A stretch of DNA of 64,000 nucleotides from Bacilli bacterium (lineage in GTDB: Bacteria; Bacillota_I; Bacilli_A; RF39; UBA660): contig JAFXZI010000001.1 of NCBI GenBank assembly GCA_017541325.1, positions 5,624 through 69,623 on the forward strand, read 5' to 3'. Below are positions 7,822-46,171 of this stretch, piece after piece (the first letter of the stretch is position 1; each line of letters begins with the position of its first letter). The notes below the pieces were generated by a model. The model ran no database searches. It was given only the letters and a program-made list of their open reading frames with translations, and had not been told where the DNA came from. Made by a program: the position numbers and the translations under genes.

Positions 7822-10687
7822 ATTCACCACCTTTTCTAACTTCTTCAATATCGAAGTCATCTGAGTAAAGTGGATATTTCAAATTACCAGTTCGATATTC
7901 TTCTTTCATTAATGAATCATATTCTTTGAATGAATTATAATCCTTAATTCCTTTTCTACATAATTTAGATATTAATAATGCTAAATCTTCATCTTCTGAA
8001 GTAATTATTAAAGTATTCTCTATCTTATATTTATCTTCTTCACCAATATTTGGATGATGCTTATATAAAGCTGAAAGATATTCTAAACATTTATTTAAAT
8101 TATCTTTTCCTACTTCATCTAAACTTGTAAATACTCCGTTTTGTTTAAATAATCCTTTTAAATAATTACCAAAGTCATTTTCTCTAACACTATTATTTAT
8201 TTCTTCTAAATAATCCTCTAATAGTTGTTCACCATCAAAGTAATTAAATGAGGCATATATATATCTTGGATATGTAATTGCATCAGTACTAATAATTGTA
8301 TTTACATATTTTAATTTTTCTAAGAAATCTTTCTTATGATCATATGAAGGTAAAGAATCTTTATCTTCATGAGCTTGATTATTATTATATTCAGTTACAA
8401 ATTTAGCATAATTATCACCATTTTTTATAACTTCATATAATTCTTCTAATTTATTTATTTCATTATTCTTAACAATAAAGTTTAAGAATAACATAATTGA
8501 TTTTTGTGTTTCTATTTTTTCTACGTTTGCTAAAGCATCATAATTAGTTTTAGCTTTTAATAAATTTAGAATTTTACTGTATTCAATACGTCTTAATTCC
8601 TTTTCATATACAGCTTTTTCCATTCTAAATGTCCAAGACTCTCTAGCATCTTTTTTATCAAGTAAATATATTAATTCTGTGCTGGAATTCATCTTAACAA
8701 TATCGCCTTTTTTAATCTTATCTCCGTTTTCATTACTAATATTTGTTGCTTTATCAATTAGTAATTCAACTTTATCATCTGAAAGGCTAAGCACTTTAAA
8801 TTTAATTCTATCAAAATCTAGAGATATTCCAGGAAGTAATGTATGTTTTTCCACTTCAAGTTCTGGAATTTGAACTACCCCAAATGAATTATCATTTTGA
8901 TAATATGGAATATGTTCAACTACTAATTTCATACTGTCATTGTAATTAATACGATAATTATTAATACTATCAGTAAGAGAATTATCTATTAATCTTTCTA
9001 AGTCAATTTCAGCAAGTTCTTCTTTTTCAATTTTCTTAAGTGATTTCTTAACACTTTCTCGAATATTATCTGTTATATCTTTGCTAACTACAAACTCTTG
9101 TTTATCTTCTTTTGGTTTTTCTTCTTCTTTGGCTTCAATTTTTTCTTTTACTAATTCATATCTTGATGATTCATCTTTTAATAAATCTGTATTAGCTAAA
9201 GTATAATTTCCATGTTTAATTTCAGAAGAATTAATTGTTTTAGGAGTTAATTCTCTCTTTGCTAATTCTTTATTTACAAAATCTGTCTTGTAATTAGAGA
9301 ATATACTTTCTATATCCATCTTGTATGGATTTTCTTCTTTAGTCTTTTCAATTTTTTCTTCTTTCTTTTCTTCTCTTTTTTCCTCTTTTTTATCCTCTTT
9401 TTTATTTGGTTTTGTAACTAATTCCATCTTGTAATTAGAGAATATTTCTTCCATATTAATTTTGTATGGGTTTTCTTTTAGAGTTGTATCTACCTTTTTC
9501 TCTTGTTTTTCTTGTTTCTTTGCAGGTTTTTTAATTATTTCTGTTTTATAGTTAGAGAATAAACTTGCAATATCCATTTCATATGGATTTTCTCTTTTTT
9601 TGCGTGCAGCTTCAAGTTGTGCTTCTTTATATATTTTATCTATATCTATTCTATATTTATTCTTTTTAGCATTTTGTATTTCAGTTTTATAATTACTAAA
9701 TAATTCATCAACATTTATAGCATATGGATTTTTCTTTGGTGCTTCACTTTCAACTTGAGTATTTAGTTTATCAAATTGATCATTTATATTTTTAATAGTT
9801 TCATTATATTTTTCATCTACTTCATCTTGATGTTCTTCTTTTTCTTCTATTTTTTTCTTTTTCTCTTTCTTTTCTTTTGGTTCAGGTTCTTCTTCACCAA
9901 TTATTTCTAGTTCTTCTTGTTCTTCTTCAACTTTTTTCTCTTCAGTCTCTTCTGTAATAATTGTGAATAAACTTTCTTCATCATCTTGTTCTTTTTCGTT
10001 AGTATCGATTACTTCAACTACTTCTTCAGTGGTTTCAACTTCTTGCTCTTCTTCTTTCTCGTCTAGGCTTAATAATTCATCTAATTTATCATAGAATTTA
10101 TATATTGAACCATCTACATATTTTGCATATCTTCTTTCATTTAAATCATAACCAAAATAAGTATTATCACAGTTAAAAATTGGAATAAATTTATCTTTAA
10201 TGAATTCTGAATCAAGTATTTCTTCATGAGCAAGCATTCTTATATCAGATTCATTAAACTTAAATCCGTTTGTAGTATAAGATACAAGTCTTTTAACTTC
10301 TTCAGGGATTGTTGCATTATAAATATCAACTACATTATCTATGTAGAAATCATTTTGTTTTACGCGATCAATGTACTCTAAAAAATCTTTAATAGTAATA
10401 TTAGTTACCATTTCAACTAATAAGTTTATTTTTTCCTTATCATATTCACAAACATTTAAACCATCATTATCATATTCAGCATAATAATCATCATTTTTTT
10501 CTTCATTTACAACATTTTTAACAAGCATTTTTAAACTAGTTAACTTAAATTCAGGCAATATTAAATCAGCTACACATTCATCATCAATAAATGTGAAGCA
10601 TCTTTTATCTTTATTTAAGAAGACTTCTTTTAAATTGTTGTCTTGTATATGAACTTTTAAAATAAAATTTCCAGAGTTATTCATCAT
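7808..10687 (-). CDS. Giant cytoplasmic hypothetical protein (959 aa) with E/K-rich linker and five copies of an ENPY-x-[MI]-[DN]-[IV]-x-x-[LI]-F-S-N-Y-K-T-[ED] repeat
   Basis: Repeats NPYAINVDELFSNYKTE, NPYEMDIASLFSNYKTE, NPYKINMEEIFSNYKME, NPYKMDIESIFSNYKTD and YRIDIDKIYKEAQ. No TM or signal peptide. RBS GGGGAGGA. Confidence 0.6.
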   Translation of the reverse strand: MMNNSGNFILKVHIQDNNLKEVFLNKDKRCFTFIDDECVADLILPEFKLTSLKMLVKNVVNEEKNDDYYAEYDNDGLNVCEYDKEKINLLVEMVTNITIKDFLEYIDRVKQNDFYIDNVVDIYNATIPEEVKRLVSYTTNGFKFNESDIRMLAHEEILDSEFIKDKFIPIFNCDNTYFGYDLNERRYAKYVDGSIYKFYDKLDELLSLDEKEEEQEVETTEEVVEVIDTNEKEQDDEESLFTIITEETEEKKVEEEQEELEIIGEEEPEPKEKKEKKKKIEEKEEHQDEVDEKYNETIKNINDQFDKLNTQVESEAPKKNPYAINVDELFSNYKTEIQNAKKNKYRIDIDKIYKEAQLEAARKKRENPYEMDIASLFSNYKTEIIKKPAKKQEKQEKKVDTTLKENPYKINMEEIFSNYKMELVTKPNKKEDKKEEKREEKKEEKIEKTKEENPYKMDIESIFSNYKTDFVNKELAKRELTPKTINSSEIKHGNYTLANTDLLKDESSRYELVKEKIEAKEEEKPKEDKQEFVVSKDITDNIRESVKKSLKKIEKEELAEIDLERLIDNSLTDSINNYRINYNDSMKLVVEHIPYYQNDNSFGVVQIPELEVEKHTLLPGISLDFDRIKFKVLSLSDDKVELLIDKATNISNENGDKIKKGDIVKMNSSTELIYLLDKKDARESWTFRMEKAVYEKELRRIEYSKILNLLKAKTNYDALANVEKIETQKSIMLFLNFIVKNNEINKLEELYEVIKNGDNYAKFVTEYNNNQAHEDKDSLPSYDHKKDFLEKLKYVNTIISTDAITYPRYIYASFNYFDGEQLLEDYLEEINNSVRENDFGNYLKGLFKQNGVFTSLDEVGKDNLNKCLEYLSALYKHHPNIGEEDKYKIENTLIITSEDEDLALLISKLCRKGIKDYNSFKEYDSLMKEEYRTGNLKYPLYSDDFDIEEVRKGGEYDEL

Positions 10688-10732
10688 ATGTCCTCCCCTT
10701 TTTATTCTAATACCCCAATCTTAACAATATCA

Positions 10733-10761
10733 TTATACAATATATAAATTTAAATTGCTAT
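10733..10761 (-). promoter_or_regulatory. Candidate extended -10 promoter (TGTATAAT on the minus strand) for the giant-protein pair
   Basis: The reverse complement of 10733-10740 is tgtataat, about 45 nt upstream of the start at 10687. Confidence 0.3.
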
Positions 10762-10767
10762 AAAAAT

Positions 10768-10798
10768 TAAAAAGATATTTTAAAAAAATATCTTTTTA
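10768..10798 (-). terminator. A/T-only hairpin (aaagatatttt/aaaatatcttt) after the surface-protein gene; weak terminator
   Basis: Palindrome read directly; lacks a GC-rich stem. Confidence 0.3.
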
Positions 10799-13700
10799 TT
10801 TGTATCCTTTTTTGGCCAATATTATGTATTTTTCCATAGTCTTCTTCATATCTGATGGATAATATGATCTTTTGCTTATAGCAGATGGTGTATAGGCTGG
10901 ATCTAAGTACAAGAAATAGTACCAAGCAAACATGTCTGCGACAAATTCAAAACGGTTTGTATAAGAGTAATCTCTAAGTGGTCTATTATTAGCACTTTTA
11001 TTAGAATATTTATTATATAAATTAACAATATCTGGCATAGAACTTAGGTATTGACCATATTGTAACTTATAATAACTATCCCAAGCATGAGTTAATTCAT
11101 GAACTATTGTTTTTAAATAATATCTATCAAAAGTAGAAGGACATATTACATCAACATTTCTATATCCAATTACTCTTCCATAAGTCATTCCAGCTGATCC
11201 ACTTCCCCATGTATTTTCGAAAGATGATTTTCCAGTAAACGTTACTTTTCCAGCTCCAAAAATATATGGTGCTTTATTATATAATCTACTTGTAAAATTA
11301 TAATAATTAGTATAAATACTAGCAGGACATCCACTTTCTGTTTCAAATGGTACATGTCCAAAAGTTTGTGTTTTTACTATTGAATAAGTATTTTTTCTAT
11401 AATAATTTTTTACTATTGCATAAAGAGTAATATCAGAATTAATAGACATATAACTTCCAGGTGTATATCCAGTTAAAGAATCTTCGTTTGTTGTTGTAGA
11501 AAATAATTGAACTTCATTCCCTTTGCTTACAATATATGGAACTTTTATCTTACAAGAGTTGGCTTTATTATAGTATGAGCATCTTTCTTGGCATCCAGAA
11601 GCCGTTTTTGTACTGCATCCAAATAATCCGTCAGCTCTATTCTTTTGAAAATATGCAACAGCACTTTTTCCTGTTACTGCATAATAAGTAGCACTGGAAG
11701 AAACTAATTCAGAAGAGTTTGTTTTTAATTCTGCTTTTTGCCCGTTTTGTGATCTATTAAATCCTATAACATTCCATCCTGCTCTTGTAATACTTGGTGT
11801 ATTTATATAACAACCTCGATCAGTATTATAGTAAATACATGATTGATTAGTAAAACTTATAGTAGAAGCACCATTCTTATCAAAATAAACATTAACAGGA
11901 ACTGATGTAATAGCAAAATATTTAGCATCTTTTTTTACTGTTAAAGTCTCATTTTGAGCATGAATTGCACTATGAGAAGTACTATCAGTATTCCATCCTA
12001 TAATATTTGCATTTTTTCTACTAATGTATGGTGTTTTAATAGTACATTCTTTATCTTTGTTATAAAAAACACATGTTAATCTTGAATTAGTAATCGCATC
12101 TGCACCATTCTTATCAAAATCTAAATTAACTACTGTTTTAGTAATTGCATACAACTTTAAATTATCTTTTATTAAAGATTTAGTATTAATTTGATATTCT
12201 GCTTGAACATTATTAGGATTTGTACTCCACCCAAGGATTTCTGCACCTTCTTTTTGAATAATAGGAAGTGATACATGACATCCTTCATTATTGTTAATAA
12301 CTTTGCACTTCATCTCTTCACTTGAAATAGAATCAGCACCATTTTTATCAAATTTCATTTTTAAACTAGTATAAGCAAGTGCATAAAGAGTTATATCTTC
12401 ATCAGTATAAAAATTATTAGTTGAAGAAGACAAAGCTGTTTCATTATCTTTATTTAAGTTCCATCCTATAATTTTACCTTTATCAAAAGTAAATTCAGGA
12501 ACTTCTACATAACATTTTTCATCACCATATATGTAGCAGTTTTTAACATGTTTATTTGGAAGAATTCCATTATAATCAAAAGTTACAGTAATGGCTTTTT
12601 TAGTAATTGCATATAAATTTATATTCTTTTTTAAAGAAACTCTTTGATTAATCTTATATTCAGGTTCTTTACTATTTTTATTTTCACTCCATCCTAATAT
12701 TTCATATCCTTCTCTAGTTATGTTTGGAAGAGTTACTATACATTCATTATTAATAGAAGTACATACAGCATAATTGTTATCAATAATTGATCCATTAGCA
12801 TAATAATTCGCTACAAATTTCTTTTTATCAACAAAATCACTTTGTCGTACTGTTATTCCAAGTTCAGTACTAGTATTTCCTGCACTGTCTTTAATATATA
12901 CTCTTATTTGACGTGGTTCTTTTATTTTTATAGTGTTTTCTTTTGTAAATTCACCACCATCAAAACTATATAATAAATCTTTATCATTATCTTTTCCAAA
13001 TGCTGTAACAGTAACAGAATCAGAACTAGATTTTGTAATTTCTACACTTCCAGTAGGTATTTGATTATCTATATTATTGATATCAATTTCCCTAGTTGGA
13101 GTCATATTTCCATATTCATCACGGACAACTAAATATATTTTTTTATTCTCATTTATAACAAAATTATTAGATGTTTGATAAGTTAAACCATTATCAATTG
13201 AATAAGTGAGTTGTCCTGATTTACTTGTAGCATTTACTTTCATATTAACACTTGTATTACTTTTTTTATTAAGTCCAGTAATACTATCAATGCTTATTAA
13301 TCCTTCGCCTTTATCATCTTTTGTTTTTATATTTATATTAAATAAAGTTCCATCTGCTGAATATATTTGATGAATAAAATATGCTTTGTTAGATAGTTTT
13401 ATTTTTTTATTACAACCAACTACTCCTGAACTATTTAATCCAAGTTCACATTTTATTTCTATTTCATTTTTATCAGTTAATACATAATAATCATGAATGT
13501 CTCCATTAAATGTAGGACTTAATGAGCCATCATCAATGTAAATGTTTTTAATACTATTATCATCACTTGGTGTTATTATTTCTTTCTTTTCATTTTTTCT
13601 AGGCATTTTAATTATTAAGAATACAATTAAGATTACAATTGCAATTAATAAATAAATTATTAAATTTCTAATTATTCTTTTTCTTTTATTTTTCTTCTTT

Positions 13701-13933
13701 AAATCATCAAAAGATTGATAATTATCGATTGTTATATTAATATTATCGCTTTCAACGACGTTACTGTGATATTTATGATAATGCTTTATATTAGAATTAT
13801 TTATTTCATTTGAATTATTAAAATTATTGATTTCATTATCTCCATTACTAAAACTAGGACTATATGTATCATGATATGTTCCTATATTTGAATTAGAATT
13901 GGAATTATTGTTATCAGGGTTCTCATTCCACAT
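10796..13933 (-). CDS. Membrane-anchored surface protein: N/S-rich cytoplasmic N-terminus, one TM, Ig-like domains, about six Listeria-Bacteroides (Flg_new) repeats and a C-terminal gluzincin-like metallopeptidase domain (HELTH...EFxAD)
   Basis: TM RIIRNLIIYLLIAIVILIVFLII. Repeated ...GY.ILGW... about 70-aa units ending in ITLYA/LYAIT. C-terminal VHELTHAWD plus NRFEFVADMF, thermolysin-like HExxH plus third Glu ligand. RBS AGGAGG. Confidence 0.6.
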   Translation of the reverse strand: MWNENPDNNNSNSNSNIGTYHDTYSPSFSNGDNEINNFNNSNEINNSNIKHYHKYHSNVVESDNINITIDNYQSFDDLKKKNKRKRIIRNLIIYLLIAIVILIVFLIIKMPRKNEKKEIITPSDDNSIKNIYIDDGSLSPTFNGDIHDYYVLTDKNEIEIKCELGLNSSGVVGCNKKIKLSNKAYFIHQIYSADGTLFNINIKTKDDKGEGLISIDSITGLNKKSNTSVNMKVNATSKSGQLTYSIDNGLTYQTSNNFVINENKKIYLVVRDEYGNMTPTREIDINNIDNQIPTGSVEITKSSSDSVTVTAFGKDNDKDLLYSFDGGEFTKENTIKIKEPRQIRVYIKDSAGNTSTELGITVRQSDFVDKKKFVANYYANGSIIDNNYAVCTSINNECIVTLPNITREGYEILGWSENKNSKEPEYKINQRVSLKKNINLYAITKKAITVTFDYNGILPNKHVKNCYIYGDEKCYVEVPEFTFDKGKIIGWNLNKDNETALSSSTNNFYTDEDITLYALAYTSLKMKFDKNGADSISSEEMKCKVINNNEGCHVSLPIIQKEGAEILGWSTNPNNVQAEYQINTKSLIKDNLKLYAITKTVVNLDFDKNGADAITNSRLTCVFYNKDKECTIKTPYISRKNANIIGWNTDSTSHSAIHAQNETLTVKKDAKYFAITSVPVNVYFDKNGASTISFTNQSCIYYNTDRGCYINTPSITRAGWNVIGFNRSQNGQKAELKTNSSELVSSSATYYAVTGKSAVAYFQKNRADGLFGCSTKTASGCQERCSYYNKANSCKIKVPYIVSKGNEVQLFSTTTNEDSLTGYTPGSYMSINSDITLYAIVKNYYRKNTYSIVKTQTFGHVPFETESGCPASIYTNYYNFTSRLYNKAPYIFGAGKVTFTGKSSFENTWGSGSAGMTYGRVIGYRNVDVICPSTFDRYYLKTIVHELTHAWDSYYKLQYGQYLSSMPDIVNLYNKYSNKSANNRPLRDYSYTNRFEFVADMFAWYYFLYLDPAYTPSAISKRSYYPSDMKKTMEKYIILAKKGYK

Positions 13934-17971: not shown

Positions 17972-18319
17972 AATACTTTATAAGCCTCGTTCTGTACCCA
18001 CTAATGGGCGACAAACATTTATCTACCTTTCGGTCTTTAACTCCATTCTAATTCTTTTGTTAAAGCTCTCCTACCAATTTTGGATTTCTCACTTGTGGGG
18101 TTTACCGCGTTTCATTTCTTTATTTCTAAAGAAGTCGTTTCTGTGGCACTTTTATAGCTAATCATATCATATGTTAAAAACACTTAGATACTTTCGCAGC
18201 CGTTAGTTTTCACTACCTAGAGTTAGTCTATTCCCCTAGCACAAACACTACAATCATCACAGATTGTGTGAGCAAGGACTTTCCTCACCATATTACTATA
18301 GCGCGTTTGTCAAAGTATT
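17972..18319 (-). ncRNA. rnpB: RNase P RNA (rnpB), Bacillus type B
   Basis: Minus strand reads ...GGUGAGGAAAGUCCUUGCUCACAC...AAAGUGCCACAGAAACG...GAAACGCGGUAAACCCCACAAGUGAGAAAUCCAAAAUUGGUAGGAGAGCUUUAAC...ACAGAACGAGGCUUAU. These match the conserved P4, P10-12 and P15-18 blocks of B. subtilis RNase P RNA. Higher GC than the surroundings, no ORF, and gpsB is adjacent as in Bacillus. Confidence 0.85.
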
Positions 18320-28832: not shown

Positions 28833-28860
28833 TCCACAAAAACTGTGGATTATTTTTTAT
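28830..28860. terminator. Bidirectional terminator
   Basis: atccacaaaaactgtggat plus ttttttat. Confidence 0.6.
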
Positions 28861-29305
28861 TACTTTCATATATTAAAGCTTCATATAATATATCGACAAT
28901 ATAATTACTATCTAAAATATTATATTTATTTTTTATTTCATCTATTACTTCATCACTATATGATAAATCTAAGTACTTAAGAACTGGTACTTTTTTATTA
29001 TTAAATTTTTCTAAATAATTAAGAGTATATATATTATCTAAATATAAAATAGTTTTCTTACCAATAAATTTTTTAAAATCTTTAACTATTTCATCTGTAC
29101 TATCTTTATAAATAAAACTATCTTTATCATATTTAATTAAATCTAATACAAATGGATTATCGATATTATTGTTACGATAATCAAATCTATCTATTAATTC
29201 TAACCCTCTTAATCTTAATGCAGATAGTTGAGCAATATCTCCATTTTTAACAGCAGTAGGTATAACTTCAACAATTATATATTCTTTTTTTAATAAATCG
29301 TTCAT
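28850..29305 (-). CDS. Hypothetical protein
   Basis: ORF in a tight minus-strand array. Confidence 0.35.
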   Translation of the reverse strand: MNDLLKKEYIIVEVIPTAVKNGDIAQLSALRLRGLELIDRFDYRNNNIDNPFVLDLIKYDKDSFIYKDSTDEIVKDFKKFIGKKTILYLDNIYTLNYLEKFNNKKVPVLKYLDLSYSDEVIDEIKNKYNILDSNYIVDILYEALIYESNKK

Positions 29306-29838
29306 TAATACTCACTTATATCTAATTTGATATTACTACCAACATCATTTATTTCTACTACTGCAATCCATGATTTAGTTATATCTGTATCATAAATTCT
29401 TTTATCTATTTTAATTATTACTTTATCATTATCTTTATAAACATCAGTAATTCTATTTGATACAACATTTCCTTTATTTTCTAAACAAAGTACAACTAAA
29501 GTATTTTCTAAATAGAATTCTTCATTACTAAATAAATCTAATTTTTTATTTAACCATTCATTTTTTTGTTTATTAACTTTTTCTTCTTTAAATGTTTTTA
29601 ACTCTTCCATATTTCTAATAACAGTTAATTCATCTAAATCATCTATTTTCTTCTTTGGTTTAATACTATTAATACCATAATTAATATGTTCAATATGAGA
29701 TTCTAGTTTTTCTACTCTATCATTAATTGCAGCTTTAACTTCAAGCATTACTTTTCCAAGCATAATAGCGCAGCAAATTATGCAAAATAATGATAAAACT
29801 TCTTTTGATAATCTATTCCTCATAGTGCTCAACTCCAA
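29305..29838 (-). CDS. Hypothetical N-terminally membrane-anchored protein
   Basis: TM LSLFCIICCAIMLGKVML. Confidence 0.35.
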   Translation of the reverse strand: MELSTMRNRLSKEVLSLFCIICCAIMLGKVMLEVKAAINDRVEKLESHIEHINYGINSIKPKKKIDDLDELTVIRNMEELKTFKEEKVNKQKNEWLNKKLDLFSNEEFYLENTLVVLCLENKGNVVSNRITDVYKDNDKVIIKIDKRIYDTDITKSWIAVVEINDVGSNIKLDISEY

Positions 29839-29909
29839 ATATTATTATAAATCATAAATATTATATTAACAATAATATTATTTTTATTAATATATAAAAA
29901 GAATGATTA

Positions 29910-30350
29910 TTAAGAATCATTCCTATTTAATAATTTTTGTATTGATTTTGTAGCTAAATCATCATATGATTTTGGCTCTATTGTACTATCTATAAAATCA
30001 GTAAAACCAGTAGGCATTAAACCATACTTAGATAATACTGAATCAATATCAAATATTCTTTGTTCAAGTACATATTCTTCATCTAGTCCACGACCAAATA
30101 TTTCATAAAACTTATCTTCTGTTTTTACTCTTAAATCATATAAATCAATTAATTGATCATATCGATCTTTTTCAATAAAACCTCTTTTATATAATCTTTC
30201 AATTTTACATACCATCATCAAGTCTGTTAATGTATAGTCTGGATAATCTGCTCTTAACGCACGAAGAACATAATCATAATCATCAAATTTACAACCAAGT
30301 TGTGTAGAATCTAATGATCTTATAGATACAAATATATTTGCTTTTTCCAT
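29910..30350 (-). CDS. Small acidic cytoplasmic protein (immunity-protein-like), first of three
   Basis: 146 aa, D/E/Y-rich, no TM. Confidence 0.4.
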   Translation of the reverse strand: MEKANIFVSIRSLDSTQLGCKFDDYDYVLRALRADYPDYTLTDLMMVCKIERLYKRGFIEKDRYDQLIDLYDLRVKTEDKFYEIFGRGLDEEYVLEQRIFDIDSVLSKYGLMPTGFTDFIDSTIEPKSYDDLATKSIQKLLNRNDS

Positions 30351-30356
30351 AACCCT

Positions 30357-30824
30357 CTACTCCTTTATTTCTTTTTGTCTATTTTCTAATTTAATATCTG
30401 CAATCGCAGATGCAACAGCATATCCTGGATCAAAAGGAAGATACTTAGCTTCTGTTAAGTCTCTTGCATCTATAAAACGACGATTAATATCATCTAAATG
30501 TTGATAAATAAAATAATGTGTTTCATAATTTATTTCATCGTTTGTATTTCCTAATAAACCATTGTAATGTCCAGCTAAAGTTACTCTAAATGCTTGTTGT
30601 GCTCTTTCCGAAGCATTTAATCCTGGTAACTCTCTTTTAAGTTTATTAGTATATACATTCATATAACCTAAATATGTAGCAATTACATCTTTAGCATCTT
30701 CTGCATACCATTTCTCTTCTAAATCCATTTCAGAATAATTAGGAAATATATCTCTAAAATAAGACAGCACTTGTTCTCTGTCAAACGGATTATCTAATTG
30801 ATCAAAACTTTTAAACTCAACCAT
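30357..30824 (-). CDS. Small acidic protein, paralogue of the adjacent 30844..31317 gene
   Basis: Shared motifs YFxxxxPxYxExxxxEKWY, RVxxxGxxxxH, and IKxxNR near the C-terminus. Confidence 0.45.
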   Translation of the reverse strand: MVEFKSFDQLDNPFDREQVLSYFRDIFPNYSEMDLEEKWYAEDAKDVIATYLGYMNVYTNKLKRELPGLNASERAQQAFRVTLAGHYNGLLGNTNDEINYETHYFIYQHLDDINRRFIDARDLTEAKYLPFDPGYAVASAIADIKLENRQKEIKE

Positions 30825-30843
30825 ATATGTACCCCTATAATTA

Positions 30844-31317
30844 TTAATTATTGTCTTCTTTTTTCATTGATCTATTATCCGCTTTTATTTCACCAACAAT
30901 AGATGTTAATTCTTCACTAGAATCAAATGGTATAGAATTATAATTACAATAGAACCATCTATCTAAATATTTTTTATTAACAGTATCTAAATTCTCTAAT
31001 ATAAAATCCCAAGATATATCTTCATTTTCTTCAACCATACTATAATAATGATCAGTTAGTAGTCCTCTATATGCTACTCTTACTATTCTTGCTTCATCTG
31101 ATATATCACCAGAAGATATAATTCTTTCAACTTGATAGTCCATTTCAGCTAGATGTTCATCTATAAAAAGTTTATCCCATTCTGTATACCATTTTTCATC
31201 AAAGGATAATTCAAAATAATCAGGATGTAATAAATCAAAATATTCTTGTACTCTTTCACGTTCATCGCCATATAAAAATATTTCAGTTCTTTCATCTAAA
31301 TCAGCCATTTCAATCAC
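30844..31317 (-). CDS. Small acidic protein, paralogue of 30357..30824
   Basis: See the paralogue; tightly packed behind ispG. Confidence 0.45.
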   Translation of the reverse strand: MIEMADLDERTEIFLYGDERERVQEYFDLLHPDYFELSFDEKWYTEWDKLFIDEHLAEMDYQVERIISSGDISDEARIVRVAYRGLLTDHYYSMVEENEDISWDFILENLDTVNKKYLDRWFYCNYNSIPFDSSEELTSIVGEIKADNRSMKKEDNN

Positions 31318-31365: not shown

Positions 31366-32430
31366 TTAATCCTTCTTTATTAATTCCATTATTTCTTCTT
31401 TTAAAACCTCTACTATTTTATCTTGTGGTACCCTTTTAATTATTTCTCCATGTGAGAAAATAATTCCTTCTTTAATTCCACCAGCAATACCTATATCTGC
31501 TTCTTTAGCTTCTCCAGGTCCATTTACTGCACACCCCATAACAGCAACTGTAATATCTGCATTAATTCCTTTTAAAAACTCTTCTATTTCTTTAGCAATT
31601 GGTATTAAATCTATTTGTGTTCTTCCACAAGTTGGACAAGATATTAATCTAGGAATATCATTCTTCATTCCTAAATCTTTTAATATCTCTTTAGCAACTA
31701 TAACTTCATCTACTGGATCACTTGATAAAGAAACTCTTAAAGTATCTCCTATTCCTTTATTAAGAAGGATTCCAATACCTATACTAGATTTAATAGTACC
31801 ACTAAAATCTGTTCCAGCTTCTGTTATTCCTATATGTAATGGATAAGTAAATGTTTTACTAGCTAGTTCATAAGCTTTTATACATAAATCAAGATTAGAT
31901 GCTTTTAATGATAAACAAATATCATAAAAGTTTAATTCTTCTAAAATATCTATATGTTTTTTTGCACTTTCTATCATAGCTTCAGCAGTTGGATGACCTC
32001 CATATTTTATTAATAATTCTTTTTCTAAAGATCCTGCATTTACTCCAATTCTTATTGGTATATTTTTTTCTTTACAAGCATTAACTACTTTTATAACATT
32101 TTCTTTTTTTCCAATATTTCCAGGATTAATTCTTATTTTATCTACTCCACTTTTTATAGCTTCAAGTGCAATTCTATAATCAAAATGAATATCAGCAACT
32201 ATTGGTATATGAATATGTTTTTTTATTTCTTTAATAGCTTTAGCATCTTCTATATCTAAACATGCTACTCTAATTATTTCACACCCAGCATTTTCTAACT
32301 CTAATATTTGCTTTACTGTAGAATCTACATCTTTTGTTTTAGTATTACACATCGATTGAATACTTATTTTATTATTACCACCAATTAGTACATCTCCAAC
32401 TTTTATTACTTTTGTCTTTTTTCTTTTCAT
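31366..32430 (-). CDS. ispG: 4-hydroxy-3-methylbut-2-enyl diphosphate synthase (flavodoxin)
   Basis: GcpE family: [13 protein letters not shown]-terminal CPTCGR 4Fe-4S motif. Start set at MKRKK with RBS ggaga. Confidence 0.9.
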
Positions 32431-32499
32431 ATTTACATCTCCATTCATATTAATAAATATATTTTTCTACTACATGATATAATTATACTAGGTGATACC

Positions 32500-32925: not shown

Positions 32926-32946
32926 ATTATTCTATCTTTTTTTAAT
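32916..32946. terminator. Bidirectional terminator
   Basis: aaagatagattattctatcttt plus T-run. Confidence 0.55.
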
Positions 32947-33470
32947 TAATTTCTTTCTATTCTATATATATGAGGTAAAGAATCCTCATCCTCATCAATT
33001 CTCAAAAATTTTTCAAAGATGTCGTTAGGAATAGCTGATTCATATTCTGGATTAAATGCTATAGAATACCCAGTCATATCGCCACGAATTATTCCTCTTA
33101 CCAAATAATTATCTTTATTATTTAATCTATACCTTTCTATAACTGCAAGATAACTTAGCGCTGCATCTTTTCCTTTTGTAGCAGCTTGTCCCATTATCTC
33201 ACTTCCTAAACGCTTATGAACATATCTAAATGCATCTCTATGATCAAAAGATAAAAATGATTTATAATTATTTTTTTTAAACATTTTATTAACATCTATA
33301 CAATCCCAATCAATTGCTTCCACATTTTCAAAATCAGAACAATCTCTAAAAATATGACTAGGATGACAAATATAAATAGAATGATTATCCCATACAGAAA
33401 GCATATTATCCATCACTTTACTAAAACTACTTTTATCATTTATATCCAATCTAATATAACTTTTACTCAC
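32946..33470 (-). CDS. Hypothetical protein, divergent partner of the ART-like gene
   Basis: 174 aa, no motif recognised. Confidence 0.35.
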   Translation of the reverse strand: MSKSYIRLDINDKSSFSKVMDNMLSVWDNHSIYICHPSHIFRDCSDFENVEAIDWDCIDVNKMFKKNNYKSFLSFDHRDAFRYVHKRLGSEIMGQAATKGKDAALSYLAVIERYRLNNKDNYLVRGIIRGDMTGYSIAFNPEYESAIPNDIFEKFLRIDEDEDSLPHIYRIERN

Positions 33471-33593
33471 AATAACACCTCTTTAAGTTATTTATTATAT
33501 AGTAATATTTTTTATGTTGTAAATATAAAATGAAAATTTGTTGATTTATAAAAAAAACGTGTTAAAATAACACACAACGGGGGTTGATATAGT

Positions 33594-34151
33594 ATGGATT
33601 ACTATTATCATGGAACAAATCAAGTTCACAGTAAAGGTTTAGACATCATGATTGATATAATTGAATCTGGCGGAATTAAAAGCAACAATAAAAGATCAGG
33701 ATCATCTTTTGGTATATATAATGGTGATGATTATATTAGTGTTGGTAAATGGAATCGTGATGAAAATATAGACTTTGATAAAATTGGGGTATCATGTTTT
33801 TATGGTTGGATATTTTGGTGCCCAGCATTTATTATTGATTCTAGTATTAATGCAATACATGCTGAAAAACATGATGAACCAGTAGATCCTAGCAAAGGAA
33901 GATATTCTTGTTTTATAGATGAATATCATGTAAGAGATGAAATAGGATTAGATAAAATTAGAGGGATAGCATTACCATTTTCATTAATTTCAGGAAATAA
34001 AGATTATCTTTTAAAAACTTTAAAGATACTTCAATATGCAAAGTTATATGGATGGAATGTTTATGAATCAGATTCTTCACTAATAGATAGAGTTGATAAA
34101 GAAGATGTATATGACGATATGAGTTATAGCAAAAAAGGAACTAATAGTTAG
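33594..34151 (+). CDS. Standalone H-Y-E class (PARP/diphtheria-toxin-like) ADP-ribosyltransferase-domain protein, putative
   Basis: N-terminal YYYHGTNQVHSKGLDIMIDIIESGGIKS resembles the diphtheria toxin SYHGTKPGYVDSIQKGI His motif. FGIYNGDDY resembles the PARP GIYFAD Tyr motif. CFIDEYHV resembles the PARP LYNEYIVY catalytic Glu motif. Confidence 0.45.
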   Translation: MDYYYHGTNQVHSKGLDIMIDIIESGGIKSNNKRSGSSFGIYNGDDYISVGKWNRDENIDFDKIGVSCFYGWIFWCPAFIIDSSINAIHAEKHDEPVDPSKGRYSCFIDEYHVRDEIGLDKIRGIALPFSLISGNKDYLLKTLKILQYAKLYGWNVYESDSSLIDRVDKEDVYDDMSYSKKGTNS

Positions 34152-34717: not shown

Positions 34718-34784
34718 ATTACTACCTCTATATTTAGTATATTACATTTTGATTATATCATATTAGTTGTTTCTATTATTTGAC

Positions 34785-34820
34785 ACAAAAAAACGAACTA
34801 TAAAGTTCGTTTATTTTTAT
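34785..34820. terminator. Bidirectional hairpin (aacgaactataaagttcgtt) with flanking A/T-runs near the presumed element boundary
   Basis: Perfect 8-bp stem read directly. Confidence 0.4.
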
Positions 34821-35033
34821 ATGGGGCCATGATTTAACGTGTTTACGAAAAATCAGCACAAATCTATGAAATTGAGTTTGACTCAATTACTTGAATAAAA
34901 TATATCACAACATTTTGACATTTGCAAATATTTTTTCAATGTTCCTTATTCTCGAAAAAATTACTAGTGTAAGATAGGATAACTCTATTTTTAAAAACTA
35001 ATAAATAATGATATAATGATTATGGTGAATAAT

Positions 35034-36068
35034 ATGGGATTTATTAAAGATTTACTTGGAAATAATGATAAAAGAAAGATTATTGGTTATGGACATAAAG
35101 ATGAAGGCATGTTTGGAAGTTTATCAATTTATTCGAAAGATTTTAATGAACAATATGCTGAAAAAGTAGCTATTTTTTTACATAAAATGAAACGTGCTGA
35201 ATTAAAAGATAAAAATGAAGATTATATGAGTACTTTAAGATATTGGTATACGATTCCTTATCCACATGATCTGCATTTGCTACTCATAAAAGAAGGATAT
35301 TATACCAAGTCTGATATAAATAATATTTTAAATGCTAAAACGATTCCACAATTAAAAGATTTAGCAAAAGAATTAAATATCACTATAAAAGGTAAAAAAG
35401 ATGAACTAGTTAGCCAATTAGAAAGTCAAATGAGTGATAATAATAAGAATGAATTATTAAATAAATCAAGACTCTATATTCTATCAGACAAAGGAAATAG
35501 TTATTTGAATCAACACTCTGATTTTGTTACTTTAGCTGAACACTATATGTGGAATATAACACAAAAAGACCTTGATGATTTTAGAAGAAATAATCCAAAC
35601 TATTCAGTATATGAAATAGCTGAATCTATTCTTTTAAAAAGAATAAGTCATAGTCTGTCTATTGGTTTGAATAATTATTCATCCTCAACATGTCATTGCC
35701 TAGCCGAACTATATAATGAATTAGGTAATTCTAGAGAATCTCTAAAATTTTATATAGGATTATTATTGTTAGATATTAATATGACACATTTTCAGAATGA
35801 GGAGTTTTATGAAAGCTATGTTAATTCTGTAAAAGATGCATATAGCAACGAATCATATGGAGTTCTTCCACCGGGAATAATCAAAACAGTTTTAGATAAT
35901 AAGCGATTAATAGATGAAAAAATCATTCAAGAGGCATATGATTCTGTTAAAAATTGTAGTAAAATATATTTAACTAGTACTGAATTTGATAATATGATAC
36001 ATGATTTAATAGAAACTGATAAAATCGATGAGAAAAAGTATTTAAAATTAATAGTCAATAGATTATGA
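35034..36068 (+). CDS. SAP-domain-containing hypothetical protein (element cargo)
   Basis: LKDLAKELNITIKGKKDELVSQLESQ matches the SAP motif; RBS ggtga before MGFIKD. Confidence 0.4.
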   Translation: MGFIKDLLGNNDKRKIIGYGHKDEGMFGSLSIYSKDFNEQYAEKVAIFLHKMKRAELKDKNEDYMSTLRYWYTIPYPHDLHLLLIKEGYYTKSDINNILNAKTIPQLKDLAKELNITIKGKKDELVSQLESQMSDNNKNELLNKSRLYILSDKGNSYLNQHSDFVTLAEHYMWNITQKDLDDFRRNNPNYSVYEIAESILLKRISHSLSIGLNNYSSSTCHCLAELYNELGNSRESLKFYIGLLLLDINMTHFQNEEFYESYVNSVKDAYSNESYGVLPPGIIKTVLDNKRLIDEKIIQEAYDSVKNCSKIYLTSTEFDNMIHDLIETDKIDEKKYLKLIVNRL

Positions 36069-36084
36069 AAGAGAGGTATATTGA

Positions 36085-37428
36085 ATGAGTTTGAGATTTA
36101 GAAGAAGTATCAAAATATGTAAGGGATTAAGAGTAAATCTTAATAAGAACTCTGTTGGTTTAAGTGTAGGTCCTAGAGGTCTAGGATATACTGTAAATTC
36201 AAAAGGAAGAAAAACAGTTCATGCTGGAATTCCTGGAACAGGTTTATCATATGTAGCTTCGAATAATGTTAGTTCATCAAAGCCTTCACAAACATCTAGA
36301 CAAGTAAGCAATTCAAGTTCAAATACTAAATATGTAGAAACAAAGATTGATTTTAGACTTGAAGATGACGGAAAATGGAGATTTTTTTACCCAGATGGTA
36401 GCGAAGTTTTTGATCAATCCCTAATAAACAGAATTAAAAGACATCCAAGCTTTATTGAACAAAAGAATAGAATTTTAAATGACAGAAACGAGAGAATTTC
36501 TCAAGAAGTAGAAGACTTTAATTCTGGTATTGAAGAATTAATCAATATTTATAAAATGGCTGCGTATCCAATTCTTGAAGATCAAGAATATGAAAATGCT
36601 ATGAATCAGATTAAACTAGAAACTTATAAAGAAGTTGAATATAAAATCCCTAAACCAACTATAGAGAATATTACTCAAGCACTAAATAAAGAAGCACAAA
36701 ATAAGATAAAAGGTATTAAGTTTTGGGAACTAAAGAAAAAAAGAAATGAATATGTTCAAGCTAATATAGATGAACGATTTGCTAATGCTACTAAAGGTTG
36801 GGAAGCAAACAAGGAAGAATTTGATAAAAACGAAAAAGAAAAAGCATCTAGCATCAATCAAGAATATAAGAAAGAATATGATGAAGCAATAGCACATTCT
36901 AAAAATATTATTAATGGTGATGAAGAAACAATTAATGATGAAATTGAAACATTCTTAAGTGAAATAGAATTGCCTCTAGAATTTAATGTTAATTTTTCAT
37001 ATTCTAAATCTAATAATACTTTATTGATTGATTTAGATTTACCAGAAATCGAAGATATGCCATCTGAAACAGCAACTCAATTAGCAAGTGGCATGAAAAA
37101 AATGAAGCCTAAAACAAAACAAGAGTTGAAAGATGATTATAAACAATTTGTTTTTGGATTTGCTTTATTTTTAACAAGTCATTTATTTAATATTAGTCCA
37201 AAGATACTAACAATTGTTATTTCTGGATATACTCAAAGAAGAGATAAAAATGGAGAAATAAATGATGACTACATTTATTCAATTATTTTTGAAAGAGAAA
37301 AATTCAAAAAATATAATCCTTTAGAAGAAAATTTAATATATATTTGTAACAATTTTAAAAATAGATGTAACGTTGATATGTATAGTAATTTTAAAGCTAT
37401 TGAACCATATACATCAGTTGAAGAATAA
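36085..37428 (+). CDS. DUF4236-domain protein with a long acidic C-terminal region
   Basis: N-terminal MSLRFRRSIKICKGLRVNLNKNSVGLSVGPRGLGYTVNSKGRKTVHAGIPGTGLSY matches the DUF4236 signature (MGFRFRKS...G.R.N.SKSG.S.S.G..G...G.PGTGLSY). Confidence 0.6.
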   Translation: MSLRFRRSIKICKGLRVNLNKNSVGLSVGPRGLGYTVNSKGRKTVHAGIPGTGLSYVASNNVSSSKPSQTSRQVSNSSSNTKYVETKIDFRLEDDGKWRFFYPDGSEVFDQSLINRIKRHPSFIEQKNRILNDRNERISQEVEDFNSGIEELINIYKMAAYPILEDQEYENAMNQIKLETYKEVEYKIPKPTIENITQALNKEAQNKIKGIKFWELKKKRNEYVQANIDERFANATKGWEANKEEFDKNEKEKASSINQEYKKEYDEAIAHSKNIINGDEETINDEIETFLSEIELPLEFNVNFSYSKSNNTLLIDLDLPEIEDMPSETATQLASGMKKMKPKTKQELKDDYKQFVFGFALFLTSHLFNISPKILTIVISGYTQRRDKNGEINDDYIYSIIFEREKFKKYNPLEENLIYICNNFKNRCNVDMYSNFKAIEPYTSVEE

Positions 37429-37817: not shown

Positions 37818-39131
37818 TTATTTTGTCCTTTCAACATTTTTGTTTTTATCAGTTTTAAATAGTCCAAAATCTTCTAGTTTTTCTAGAATAGCTCTAGGAA
37901 TTAGACCATTAATTACTTCAGTAGTAATAATTGTTTTTATTTTTTGAATAGCATCTTTTAAAGCAGATACTAATGCTTGTAAGTTAAAGTTTTCTTTCTT
38001 TAAGTTTTCACTAGATTTTACTAATAAGTCATTACTATTTGTTAAATCTTTTATTGTAGAATCTTGATCTTTGATAGTTTCTTTTAATTGTCTAACTTCT
38101 TTTTTATGATTCTTTAAGTCGTCTTTATATTCATTTACTATATTAGTAATCTCATTAGTAGATAGAATACTATTAGTACTTTTTCTAGAATCAACGATAT
38201 AGTCATTAATCTTTTCTATATCTTCTTTTGAAATAGTGAAGTTATTCTTATTTAAAGTTTGTGATTTAAGATTATTAACCAATTCATAAACTTCTTTTGA
38301 TTTTTCATTTATCTTATTAGCATCTTCATTTAGTTTTTCTAATGCTTCTTGACTCTTCCTTATATTTCTAGTTGATTGTTGATAATGAGCCATATCATTA
38401 ACATTAATATCTTGATTTCTACCTTCTTGTTTTAATTTTAAAGTGTAGTTAAGATTATAAGTTTCATTAAACTCTTTAATACATAGTTCTCTCATTTGAT
38501 CTTGTATTTTTAATAAAGAGTCTTTAGTAAAAACTGATGCTTTTCCAACTTGAACAGACATTCCATTTTTATTCCCTTGCTTATAAGCAATTCCCATAAT
38601 ATGCATATGAGGAGAAGCTTCATCATAGTGAATAACAGCATTTGAAATTTTAAAATTTGGAATTATCTTTTCTAAATCTTTGATTTGTTTTTTAAAAACA
38701 ATTGTCATTTTTCTTTTGTCTTCTTCAGAAATAGTACTCCAATAATACATGTCGCCAATCTCTAAAATGATAGGGATAGCTAAGTCATGTTTGTTATCAT
38801 CAGAGATATGTTTGAAGTAATTTTCAATCTTTCGGTCGTTTCTTTTTTGCTTAGAATTGAATTCGATTCTAGCTTCTTCAAATAGTTCTAAGTAAGTATT
38901 TTTAACATCTTCAACTAGATTATTTGTACCAACAATTACTTCAATTCGTTCAGGATTATTTTCGTATTTTCTTAAATTATGGTTGTCTGCTTTTGTTAAT
39001 TGTGCCTGAGTTTGAATTGCATTATTTGGTTTTGATTTGCTATCGTACTTACTATTTTTTGCTAATCTTCTTCCTTCTAAAGACTTATTTTTGTCGACTC
39101 CAACATGAAATGAATAACTTAGTTCTTGCAT
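37818..39131 (-). CDS. MobV-family relaxase (Mob/Pre plasmid recombination enzyme, TnpZ-like)
   Basis: HYDEASPHMH (HxDExxPHxH) metal-binding motif III, N-terminal MQELSYSFHV motif I-like, long C-terminal coiled coil. Confidence 0.75.
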   Translation of the reverse strand: MQELSYSFHVGVDKNKSLEGRRLAKNSKYDSKSKPNNAIQTQAQLTKADNHNLRKYENNPERIEVIVGTNNLVEDVKNTYLELFEEARIEFNSKQKRNDRKIENYFKHISDDNKHDLAIPIILEIGDMYYWSTISEEDKRKMTIVFKKQIKDLEKIIPNFKISNAVIHYDEASPHMHIMGIAYKQGNKNGMSVQVGKASVFTKDSLLKIQDQMRELCIKEFNETYNLNYTLKLKQEGRNQDINVNDMAHYQQSTRNIRKSQEALEKLNEDANKINEKSKEVYELVNNLKSQTLNKNNFTISKEDIEKINDYIVDSRKSTNSILSTNEITNIVNEYKDDLKNHKKEVRQLKETIKDQDSTIKDLTNSNDLLVKSSENLKKENFNLQALVSALKDAIQKIKTIITTEVINGLIPRAILEKLEDFGLFKTDKNKNVERTK

Positions 39132-39386: not shown

Positions 39387-41234
<1,848 letters not shown>

Positions 41235-41684: not shown

Positions 41685-41775
41685 AATCGTCTCATTCCTT
41701 TCTTAAACACAAAAAAACTCAATTTTAGCAATTGAGTCTATCTGTAAGTCGAAAAATTTCGACGATTTTCATAAA

Positions 41776-41852
41776 TGGGGCGGAATAAGGGGATCGAACC
41801 CTTGCATACCGGAGCCACAATCCGGCGTGTTAACCACTTCACCAATACCGCC
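41776..41852 (-). tRNA. tRNA-His (anticodon GTG), CCA encoded, with G-1
   Basis: Minus strand reads G-GCGGTAT...anticodon stem CCGGA/TCCGG with loop TTGTGGC (GTG anticodon), T-arm AAGGGTTCGATCCCTT, acceptor ATTCCGC-C-CCA. Confidence 0.85.
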
Positions 41853-44133: not shown

Positions 44134-45945
44134 CTACTCTACTGTAACTGATTTAGCTAAGTTTCTAGGTTTATCTATATCACATTTTCTTAAATCTGCT
44201 ACATGATAAGCTATTAATTGAAGTGGTACAACTGTAAGAAGTGGTACTAAATAATTATCTACTTTTGGTAGTACTACTTTTTGATCAATAAAATCATAAT
44301 CACCATCTAATTCATTAGTAGTTATTAATATTACTTTTGCACCTCTTGCAACTACTTCTTTAATATTACTAATTGTTTTTAAAGAAAGTTCTGGATCAGT
44401 CATAATAGCTATTACTGGAGTACCTTCTTCTATCAAAGAAATAGTTCCATGTTTTAATTCTCCAGCTTGATAAGCTTCACTATGCATATAAGATATTTCT
44501 TTTAATTTTAAACTTCCTTCTAAACTGATAGCATAATCTATTCCTCTACCTATATAGAACAAGTCTTTATCTTCATAAATATATTTAGCTATATCTATAT
44601 AGTTTTTGTCTTTTGCTATTACTTCATCTATTAATTTAGGTACTGTACTTAATGATTGTAATAATTCTTGTAATCTTTCTCCTGTTATTAGATTTCTTTC
44701 TAACATAAGTTTTAAATTAATAAGTTCTAACATTGCTACTTGTAGTAAATATGCTTTAGTAGTTGCAACTGCTATTTCAACTCCTGCTCTTATATATAAT
44801 ACATTTTTAGATTCTCTAGCTATAGTAGAACCAACTACATTAACAATACCTAATGTATCTATTCCATCTTCATTAGCTTTACGAAGAGATGCTATAGTAT
44901 CAGCAGTTTCTCCTGATTGAGAAATAAGAATAACTAAAGTTTTATCATTATAAAATTCTTTTTTATAACGATATTCACTAGCTATTTCAACATCTACTTT
45001 TATACCAGCATAATTTTCTATTAAATGTTTACCTATTAATCCAGCATGCATTGCAGATCCACAAGCAACTATATGAATATTATCATATTTACTAAAATCA
45101 GGCATTTTATTTATAAATGAATCTATGCTTTCTACATATTCATTTATAGTATCTTTAAGTACTTTTCCTTCTTCATAGATTTCTTTAAGCATAAAGTGAG
45201 GAAAACCATTTTTCTCAGCTTCTTCTACGTTCCAATATACGGTATTAATATTTTTTCTTATCGGTTCAAGGTTTTCATTATAAATATCTACTCCATTATT
45301 TGTAATTTTTACAATATCATAGTTATTAAGTAAGAAATAATTTTTTGTAAAATTAATAATCGCTGCAACATCTGAAGCAATTAAATTTTCTTCTTCTCCT
45401 ACTCCAATAATTAATGGACTATCTTTACGAGTAGCATATAAAGTATCTAATTCATCATCAAAAATAATTCCTAAAGCATAACTTCCTTTTATATAGGAAG
45501 ACATTTCTTTAATTACTTCTAAATTAGACCAAATATCTTTACTTTTTAAATAATCAAGTAAAGCTGCGACTATTTCAGTATCAGTTTCACTTACAAATGA
45601 ATAACCTTCTTTAATTAACATTTCTTTAAGTTCTAGATAGTTTTCAATAATACCATTATGTATTATTGTAACGCTTCCAGAACGATGTGGATGAGCATTA
45701 ATAGTAGTTGCATTTCCATGAGTAGCCCATCTTGTATGAGCTATACCTATATTACTTAATAAATCTTCATCTATCATATTTTCTAAAGCACTAATTTTTC
45801 CAGTAGTTTTAAGTATTTCAACTTTATCAGTAACAAATGCAATTCCTGCAGAATCATATCCTCTATATTCTAAAGTTTTTAATCCATCTATTAATACTCT
45901 TTCTATATTAACTTTTTTTCCGACATATCCAAATATTCCGCACAT
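44134..45945 (-). CDS. glmS: Glutamine--fructose-6-phosphate aminotransferase
   Basis: MCGIFGYVG N-terminal nucleophile; two SIS domains. Start set at MCGIF; MEVFY is an RBS artefact. Confidence 0.95.
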   Translation of the reverse strand: MCGIFGYVGKKVNIERVLIDGLKTLEYRGYDSAGIAFVTDKVEILKTTGKISALENMIDEDLLSNIGIAHTRWATHGNATTINAHPHRSGSVTIIHNGIIENYLELKEMLIKEGYSFVSETDTEIVAALLDYLKSKDIWSNLEVIKEMSSYIKGSYALGIIFDDELDTLYATRKDSPLIIGVGEEENLIASDVAAIINFTKNYFLLNNYDIVKITNNGVDIYNENLEPIRKNINTVYWNVEEAEKNGFPHFMLKEIYEEGKVLKDTINEYVESIDSFINKMPDFSKYDNIHIVACGSAMHAGLIGKHLIENYAGIKVDVEIASEYRYKKEFYNDKTLVILISQSGETADTIASLRKANEDGIDTLGIVNVVGSTIARESKNVLYIRAGVEIAVATTKAYLLQVAMLELINLKLMLERNLITGERLQELLQSLSTVPKLIDEVIAKDKNYIDIAKYIYEDKDLFYIGRGIDYAISLEGSLKLKEISYMHSEAYQAGELKHGTISLIEEGTPVIAIMTDPELSLKTISNIKEVVARGAKVILITTNELDGDYDFIDQKVVLPKVDNYLVPLLTVVPLQLIAYHVADLRKCDIDKPRNLAKSVTVE

Positions 45946-45961
45946 ATAAAAAACCTCCACT

Positions 45962-46106
45962 CGAAAAAAACTAGTGAAGATATATTTTTTGTTATAATCT
46001 CTATTTTATTTTTTGTTATATATCTAACGACTCACCATGCCGCAGTAGTACCCGCCGAATCTTTCGATTACCTACCGACCTCGTCAACATTATGTCCTGG
46101 CGCTTA
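45962..46106 (-). ncRNA. glmS ribozyme (GlcN6P-dependent self-cleaving riboswitch) in the glmS 5' leader
   Basis: Minus strand reads A/GCGCCAGGACAUAAUGUUGACGAGGUCGGUAGGUAAUCGAAAGAUUCGGCGGGUACUACUGCGGCAUGG, matching the conserved AGCGCCAG...GACGAGG...AUCGAA..UUCGGCGG core. GC-rich island in an AT-rich leader. Confidence 0.8.
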
Positions 46107-46171
46107 ATATAATTTACAACCTTTCTCGTTATATCTAATTTAAGTTTATAATAGATAGATTTTCACTACAA

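Follow-up and report, generated by a model that had tools for sequence, protein, structure and literature searches.

Does the small gene at the centre of this locus encode an ADP-ribosyltransferase (ART), and does it act together with the gene that diverges from it? The locus lies in a stretch of 64,000 nucleotides (nt) of contig JAFXZI010000001.1 (assembly GCA_017541325.1, positions 5,624 to 69,623) from a bacterium of the Bacilli (RF39, UBA660), referred to here as the window, with a G+C content of about 25%. An initial annotation, made from the sequence alone, regarded the 185-amino-acid (aa) product of one gene as a candidate standalone ART of the PARP/diphtheria toxin type, and its divergent 174-aa neighbour as the possible second component of a toxin/immunity or anti-phage module. 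According to our analysis, the 185-aa protein is probably an active standalone NAD+-dependent ART, or possibly an NADase, belonging to an uncurated ART-fold family, while the 174-aa gene is an unrelated accessory gene. Both open reading frames (ORFs) were confirmed at their annotated positions, and the features on which the discussion relies are the following:

33594..34151, plus strand: gene of the 185-aa ART-fold protein, ATG start, from an uncurated family whose active site follows the pattern H-Y-[D]E
33609..33611, plus strand: codon of His6 in YYHGT, the residue of ART motif I that lies at the end of strand 1, His in 136/145 family members
33732..33734, plus strand: codon of Tyr47, the proposed motif II aromatic residue at the start of strand 47-51 (D-Y-I-S), from conservation and the DSSP assignment of the model
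33918..33923, plus strand: codons of Asp109 and Glu110 (F-I-D-E-Y-H-V), where Glu110 opens strand 110-114 and is the proposed catalytic residue, from conservation
33541..33568, plus strand: promoter-like site 5′ of the ART-like gene (TTGATT, 16-nt spacer, TG-TAAAAT), a consensus match only
32946..33470, minus strand: 174-aa gene, GTG start, a divergent neighbour and not a conserved partner
33494..33523, minus strand: promoter-like site of the 174-aa gene (TTTACA, 18-nt spacer, TATAAT, 11/12 matches), a consensus match only

All the motifs quoted in the initial annotation are present in the 185-aa protein, with YHGT at residues 5-8, GIYNGDDY at 40-47 and FIDEYHV at 107-113, and the numbering of its nominated residues H6, Y42 and E110 is correct. 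The protein begins directly at strand 1 (MDYYYHGT), leaving no room for a signal peptide, and is predicted from its sequence to be cytoplasmic and single-domain. No model in Pfam, NCBIfam, PADLOC or PHROGs matches either the 185-aa or the 174-aa protein, and the PADLOC scan, run at a threshold of E <= 1, gave no family for three other neighbouring proteins either.

In regard to the fold, comparison of the structure model of the 185-aa protein returned ARTs as 17 of the 20 top matches. The ART fold on which the initial annotation depended is therefore predicted, and the model contains the split beta-sheet core of ARTs. Matches ranked further down include TreX, LT, CteC, pertussis toxin, Scabin, OspC3, CARDS, MTX and PARP4. 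In the DSSP assignment of the model, H6 stands directly after strand 3-5, and strands 47-51 and 110-114 begin with Y47 and E110, respectively. Such an arrangement of strands is that of the H-Y-E triad and also of the H-H-h triad of Tpt1 and DUF952, the triad patterns of the ART clades being H-Y-E, H-H-h and H-x-[S/T] (PMC8120803). By this topology, Y47 would be the counterpart of the Tyr of PARP and diphtheria toxin and of the Tpt1 His. The assignment to the H-Y-E ARTs is thus supported, but the fold is Tpt1/DarT-like and not PARP/diphtheria toxin-like: neither the Pfam PARP and toxin catalytic models nor the closest structural similarities place the 185-aa protein with PARP or diphtheria toxin.

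Conservation within the family points to the same residues. Alignment A1 comprises 23 homologous clusters, all unannotated and 47-97% identical to the 185-aa protein, and its invariant columns are H6-G7-T8, N43, G44, D46, Y47, S49, D109, E110 and H112. An exhaustive profile search of 1.84 billion cluster representatives recovered, at E <= 1e-3, 222 proteins, equivalent to about 222 clusters at 50% identity, almost all of them standalone and approximately 170-215 aa long. The longer ones were scanned for fused domains and contained none, only insertions and one partial duplication. The family is acidic, with a median isoelectric point (pI) of about 5.3. Among 145 members aligned to the family hidden Markov model (HMM), which are only about 20% identical, position 6 is His in 136 (94%), position 109 is Asp in 138 (95%) and position 110 is Glu in 143 (99%); D109 and E110 are also the only invariant columns of alignment A2 (66 sequences). 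Position 47 is occupied by Tyr in 114 members, His in 17, Phe in 7 and Trp in 4 (Tyr 79%, His 12%, either of the two 91%), followed by Ile or Val and then by Ser or Cys. The nominated H6 and E110 are accordingly borne out, whereas conservation in these members identifies the Tyr as Y47 and not Y42, a position that is simply aromatic (F 53, Y 52, W 13). Since they are conserved across the 145 aligned members, the motifs are real signatures of a family that no curated library describes. Named relatives come from metagenome-assembled genomes (MAGs) of uncultured Bacilli, Erysipelotrichaceae and Firmicutes from goat, sheep and rumen samples, and the genome scan for them, with alignment A1 as the query, gave in addition one weak match in a Muribaculaceae MAG. 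DNA and protein searches of phage, plasmid and IMG/VR collections found no match for the ART-like or the 174-aa family.

With the fold, the conserved residues and the absence of a partner in place, we infer the use of NAD+, the catalysis and the acceptor as follows. NAD+ would bind in the cleft between the two sheets, where His6 at the end of strand 1 would contact the ribose hydroxyls and Tyr47 at the start of strand 47-51 would stack on the nicotinamide. With the help of Asp109, Glu110 at the beginning of strand 110-114 would stabilise an oxocarbenium-like transition state, after which ADP-ribose would pass to an acceptor or to water, the latter amounting to NADase activity. The enzyme would work alone, without a dedicated antitoxin or reversing enzyme.

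The surroundings of the gene in other genomes bear on this last point. Neighbours of the ART-like gene differ in every lineage examined. In some loci they are a P-type cation ATPase with UDG or a GT8 glycosyltransferase, in others VanY, Fic, 3HCDH, a serpin, an HTH protein, an acyltransferase or PfkB, and in one of the fetched loci (numbered with L), L004, an Ldh gene and an EndoU_bacteria gene. Of the genes flanking the ART-family loci, as far as they were called or scanned with Pfam, none encodes a macrodomain or an ARH, and the window contains no macrodomain gene. In a distant branch, the genes follow a fixed order of transketolase, UPF0154, a Mur-ligase-like gene, ART-like genes, tgt and a metallophosphoesterase, and the ART-like paralogues form head-to-tail arrays between the Mur-ligase-like gene and tgt. 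Six paralogues are present in L008 (1971-5600) and three each in L010 (3788-5636) and L011 (3171-5019), while L006 and L007 (4926-6753) hold one single-domain ART-like gene followed by a fused 378-aa two-domain gene. Most array copies keep the H and the D-E.

Some details of these loci stand on their own. In L004 an orphan 120-aa EndoU_bacteria toxin-domain gene (6636-6998) comes after the ART-like gene, and in L012 a Fic/DOC gene (6649-7845) follows it, neither association recurring elsewhere. A role in tRNA metabolism, considered because of the adjacency to tgt, was rejected, as the housekeeping block is conserved in one lineage only and the neighbours differ in the others.

The acidity of the proteins, and the fact that one to six copies are tolerated with no antidote next to them, lead us to favour an acceptor that is a protein or a small molecule, or else an activity under conditional regulation. 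A constitutively lethal DNA toxin of the DarT type is unlikely, because the members are standalone and acidic and often occur in arrays of diversifying paralogues within housekeeping regions. A more speculative extension, which we put forward only tentatively, is that the family is active and tolerated without an antitoxin, forms its arrays of up to six copies in AT-rich gut Bacilli, and that each paralogue ADP-ribosylates a target of its own, either a small molecule, in the manner of Arr-like detoxification, or a foreign or host protein. If true, the paralogue arrays would not be a toxin system but a varied repertoire of modifying enzymes.

Several results weigh against reading the 185-aa protein as an active ART. 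The structure model was built on 24 fairly similar sequences, and Foldseek gives the same ranking of matches but with weak E-values (best 4.9e-3). Profile searches of PDB sequences returned nothing with alignment A1 and only spurious AAA-ATPase and VPS4 fragments with A2, and sequence links of the family to known ARTs are at noise level. The argument on the acceptor class, drawn from the pI and the absence of an antitoxin, is indirect. Finally, two copies in L008 have replaced the H with Y, one of them also having D-C in place of D-E, so that not every member need be an enzyme. Faint sequence links nevertheless count in favour of an ART. Pfam DarT is the only family that recurs among the sub-threshold matches (10/66 and 3/75 members, 13/141 together, best E 0.01), and a search with A2 of a set of 5.8 billion proteins brought back only unannotated family members, with no bridge to Pfam-annotated DarT proteins. 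When the family was aligned by hhalign with a small alignment of the Tpt1 NAD lobe (PDB chain sequences), only motif I aligned, with a probability of 9%, pairing 'YYHGT...IIESGGIKS' with the Tpt1 'LFHGT...ILKDGIKK' ('LYHGT' motif). At the level of sequence, the ART-like family stands alone.

The proposal of the initial annotation that the two genes form a toxin/immunity or anti-phage module, with the 185-aa protein as the ART toxin and the 174-aa protein as the antitoxin or immunity protein, found no support, and we consider it very improbable. The genes are adjacent and divergent, separated by a spacer of 123 nt that holds one promoter-like site for each, although sites like that of the ART-like gene are no more frequent here than in shuffled sequence. 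Genes of a mobile element are located nearby, and homologues of the 174-aa protein occur in island-like contexts, following a RhuM-family gene with an integrase and an AbiEii gene close by; others follow a 248-aa gene. Nevertheless, when the HMMs of both families were searched against every ORF of 25 fetched sequences (24 loci and the window), the two families occurred together only in the window, L023 and L024. These two represent the same locus in the same species (99.3% and 97.5% nucleotide identity), so that the arrangement is stable in two other samples but they do not constitute independent evidence. No homologue of the 174-aa protein was found in the 17 other distinct ART-family loci, where the neighbours are unrelated, and no ART-family gene in the loci of the 174-aa family; even L004, L012 and L013, whose ART-family proteins are 76-78% identical to that of the window, have no neighbour genes in common with it. 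No second gene is interspersed between the ART paralogues in the arrays of up to six. Neither protein has a PADLOC match, and the absence of both families from phages, plasmids and IMG/VR contigs likewise speaks against such a module. The remark of the initial annotation that the 174-aa protein has no recognisable macro or ARH-type fold agrees with its confident structure model, in which no macro, ARH, NADAR or known immunity fold, nor any other fold relative, was recognised. In our reading, the 174-aa gene is an unrelated accessory gene.

The 174-aa family has its own peculiarities in other genomes. In L019 (5138-6375), L021 (2071-3308) and L020 (1-803), the ORF directly upstream of a 124-aa homologue also matches the HMM of the 174-aa family (E ~1e-16), and in L019 and L021 this ORF overlaps the gene called RhuM, which suggests a frameshifted or originally fused gene of RhuM and the 174-aa family. 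P0029 and P0030 have N-terminal extensions, and that of P0029 looks Kae1/TsaD-like.

Other explanations concern the 185-aa protein itself. It could be a DarT-like nucleic-acid ADP-ribosyltransferase, acting on single-stranded DNA (ssDNA) or RNA bases and rendered harmless by low expression or by an unlinked hydrolase. The recurrence of DarT among the sub-threshold matches touches on this option, but the protein itself has no Pfam DarT match, its relatives remain far below threshold (best E 0.01), and no DarG-type macrodomain gene accompanies the loci examined. The median pI of 5.3 is unexpected for a DNA-binding enzyme, a matter of general knowledge and not of measurements on DarT, and we regard this explanation as unlikely. 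Immunity-gene arrays are known from polymorphic toxin systems, and the arrays of small, rapidly diverging cytoplasmic paralogues in variable contexts resemble them; the 185-aa protein could consequently be a non-catalytic ART-fold protein, either a sensor binding NAD+ or ADP-ribose or an immunity-type protein, with the arrays reflecting poly-immunity diversification against incoming toxins. The EndoU_bacteria gene following the ART-like gene in L004 and the loss of H or E from some array copies fit such a role. The retention of H (94%), D (95%) and E (99%) among members of about 20% identity is, however, what would be expected of an enzyme and not of a protein that only binds its ligand, most array copies keep the catalytic-type residues, and we know of no immunity family with an ART fold, which leaves a non-catalytic role improbable.

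The least probable of the explanations, and one to which we give hardly any weight, is an RNA 2′-phosphotransferase of the Tpt1/KptA type, or an enzyme that ADP-ribosylates 5′-phosphate ends. The structural likeness to Tpt1 and the neighbourhood of tgt might point in that direction, but the latter belongs to the housekeeping block of a single lineage, and the protein opens with strand 1 of the NAD lobe and so lacks the N-terminal winged-helix lobe that bears most of RH-R-R (PMC8120803). The invariant Tpt1 Arg (R-x-Y-V-H) corresponds, by manual offset, to N43, and the hydrophobic third position of Tpt1 is opposed to an invariant Glu in the ART-like family. An active standalone ART acting on a protein or small molecule, or under conditional regulation, remains the preferred reading of the 185-aa protein.

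The surroundings in the window concern the remaining claim of the initial annotation, that the pair sits beside a mobile element. To the left are ispG and a gene for a 141-aa membrane protein, and to the right the genes are arranged as follows:

31366..32448: ispG, identified from its translation, left of the pair
first gene right of the pair: 182-aa zinc-ribbon membrane protein
35016..36068: SAP-domain protein
36085..37428: DUF4236 protein (phrog_38135, E 8e-75)
between the DUF4236 gene and the relaxase gene: 104-aa ORF
37818..39131: Mob_Pre relaxase
39387..41207: large serine recombinase
41776..41851: tRNA-His

The segment 34800-41750, ending beside tRNA-His, is probably an integrative mobilisable element. 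The only possible mark of its ends that was found is a weak direct repeat of 24 nt (79% identity, 34771-34794 and 41695-41718); the left boundary would then fall some 0.6 kb rightward of the ART-like gene. Element genes do lie near the pair, as annotated, but the repeat is too weak to place the pair inside or outside the element, and hence to make it cargo or not.

Elsewhere in the window, the minus strand at 30357-31317 carries two neighbouring ORFs (155 and 157 aa), both unmatched in Pfam, that are mutual paralogues (28% identity over 136 aa, E 3e-17), and three other small ORFs at 28850-30350 show no detectable relation to them. Three consecutive very large ORFs (1014, 959 and 1045 aa) occupy 4816-13933 on the minus strand. 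An RNase P RNA of class B (17976-18318, minus strand, 258 bits) and a glmS ribozyme (45969-46115, minus strand, 64 bits) directly upstream of glmS (44134..45960) are ordinary housekeeping RNAs and fit the chromosome of a low-GC Firmicute.

Toxins, toxin-antitoxin systems, phage defence and counter-defence, antibiotic inactivation and RNA repair all make use of enzymes with the ART fold. The ART-like family retains the complete H-Y-[D]E site, lacks a partner gene and forms tandem paralogue arrays, and it would therefore represent a new branch of the superfamily close to its Tpt1/DarT base and, if active, a new case of an ART tolerated by the cell without an antidote. Its significance is limited, since the kind of enzyme is already well known and nothing here reveals the target. 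In practical terms there is a real if modest benefit, as the family can now be defined for curation and the residues to mutate are corrected to H6, Y47 and E110.

Several known systems stand closest to this family. Tpt1/KptA (PDB 7yw4, 6e3a and 7kw8, C-terminal NAD+-binding lobe) consists of two lobes, the N-terminal winged-helix lobe carrying most of the RH-R-R catalytic tetrad (PMC8120803), and the 185-aa protein possesses neither this RNA-binding lobe nor the tetrad. At the third motif position the family has its invariant Glu preceded by Asp where Tpt1 has a hydrophobic residue, and N43 takes the place, again by manual offset, of the invariant Arg situated four residues before the second His of the Tpt1 lobes. 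The 185-aa protein further differs from Tpt1 by about 20 additional residues inserted ahead of the Glu strand and by a C-terminal helix-strand-helix extension (residues 129-170), which may form a substrate cap. The ssDNA ADP-ribosyltransferase DarT (PF14487; PDB 8baq, 7omv-7omy and 7yk3) is likewise among the closest systems, but the 185-aa protein has no PF14487 match and its relatives only sub-threshold ones. Unlike DarT, the family is acidic rather than basic, has no adjoining DarG macrodomain antitoxin at the loci examined, and occurs in tandem arrays within housekeeping regions instead of a toxin-antitoxin pair. With diphtheria toxin and PARP of the H-Y-E clade it shares the aromatic-H-G-[ST] motif, the aromatic-x-[ST] strand and the Glu-Tyr that opens the catalytic strand (PMC8120803). 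Also listed among the closest systems are the rifampin ADP-ribosyltransferase Arr and DUF952/CC0527, which provide precedents for small standalone ARTs (PMC8120803) that need no antitoxin.
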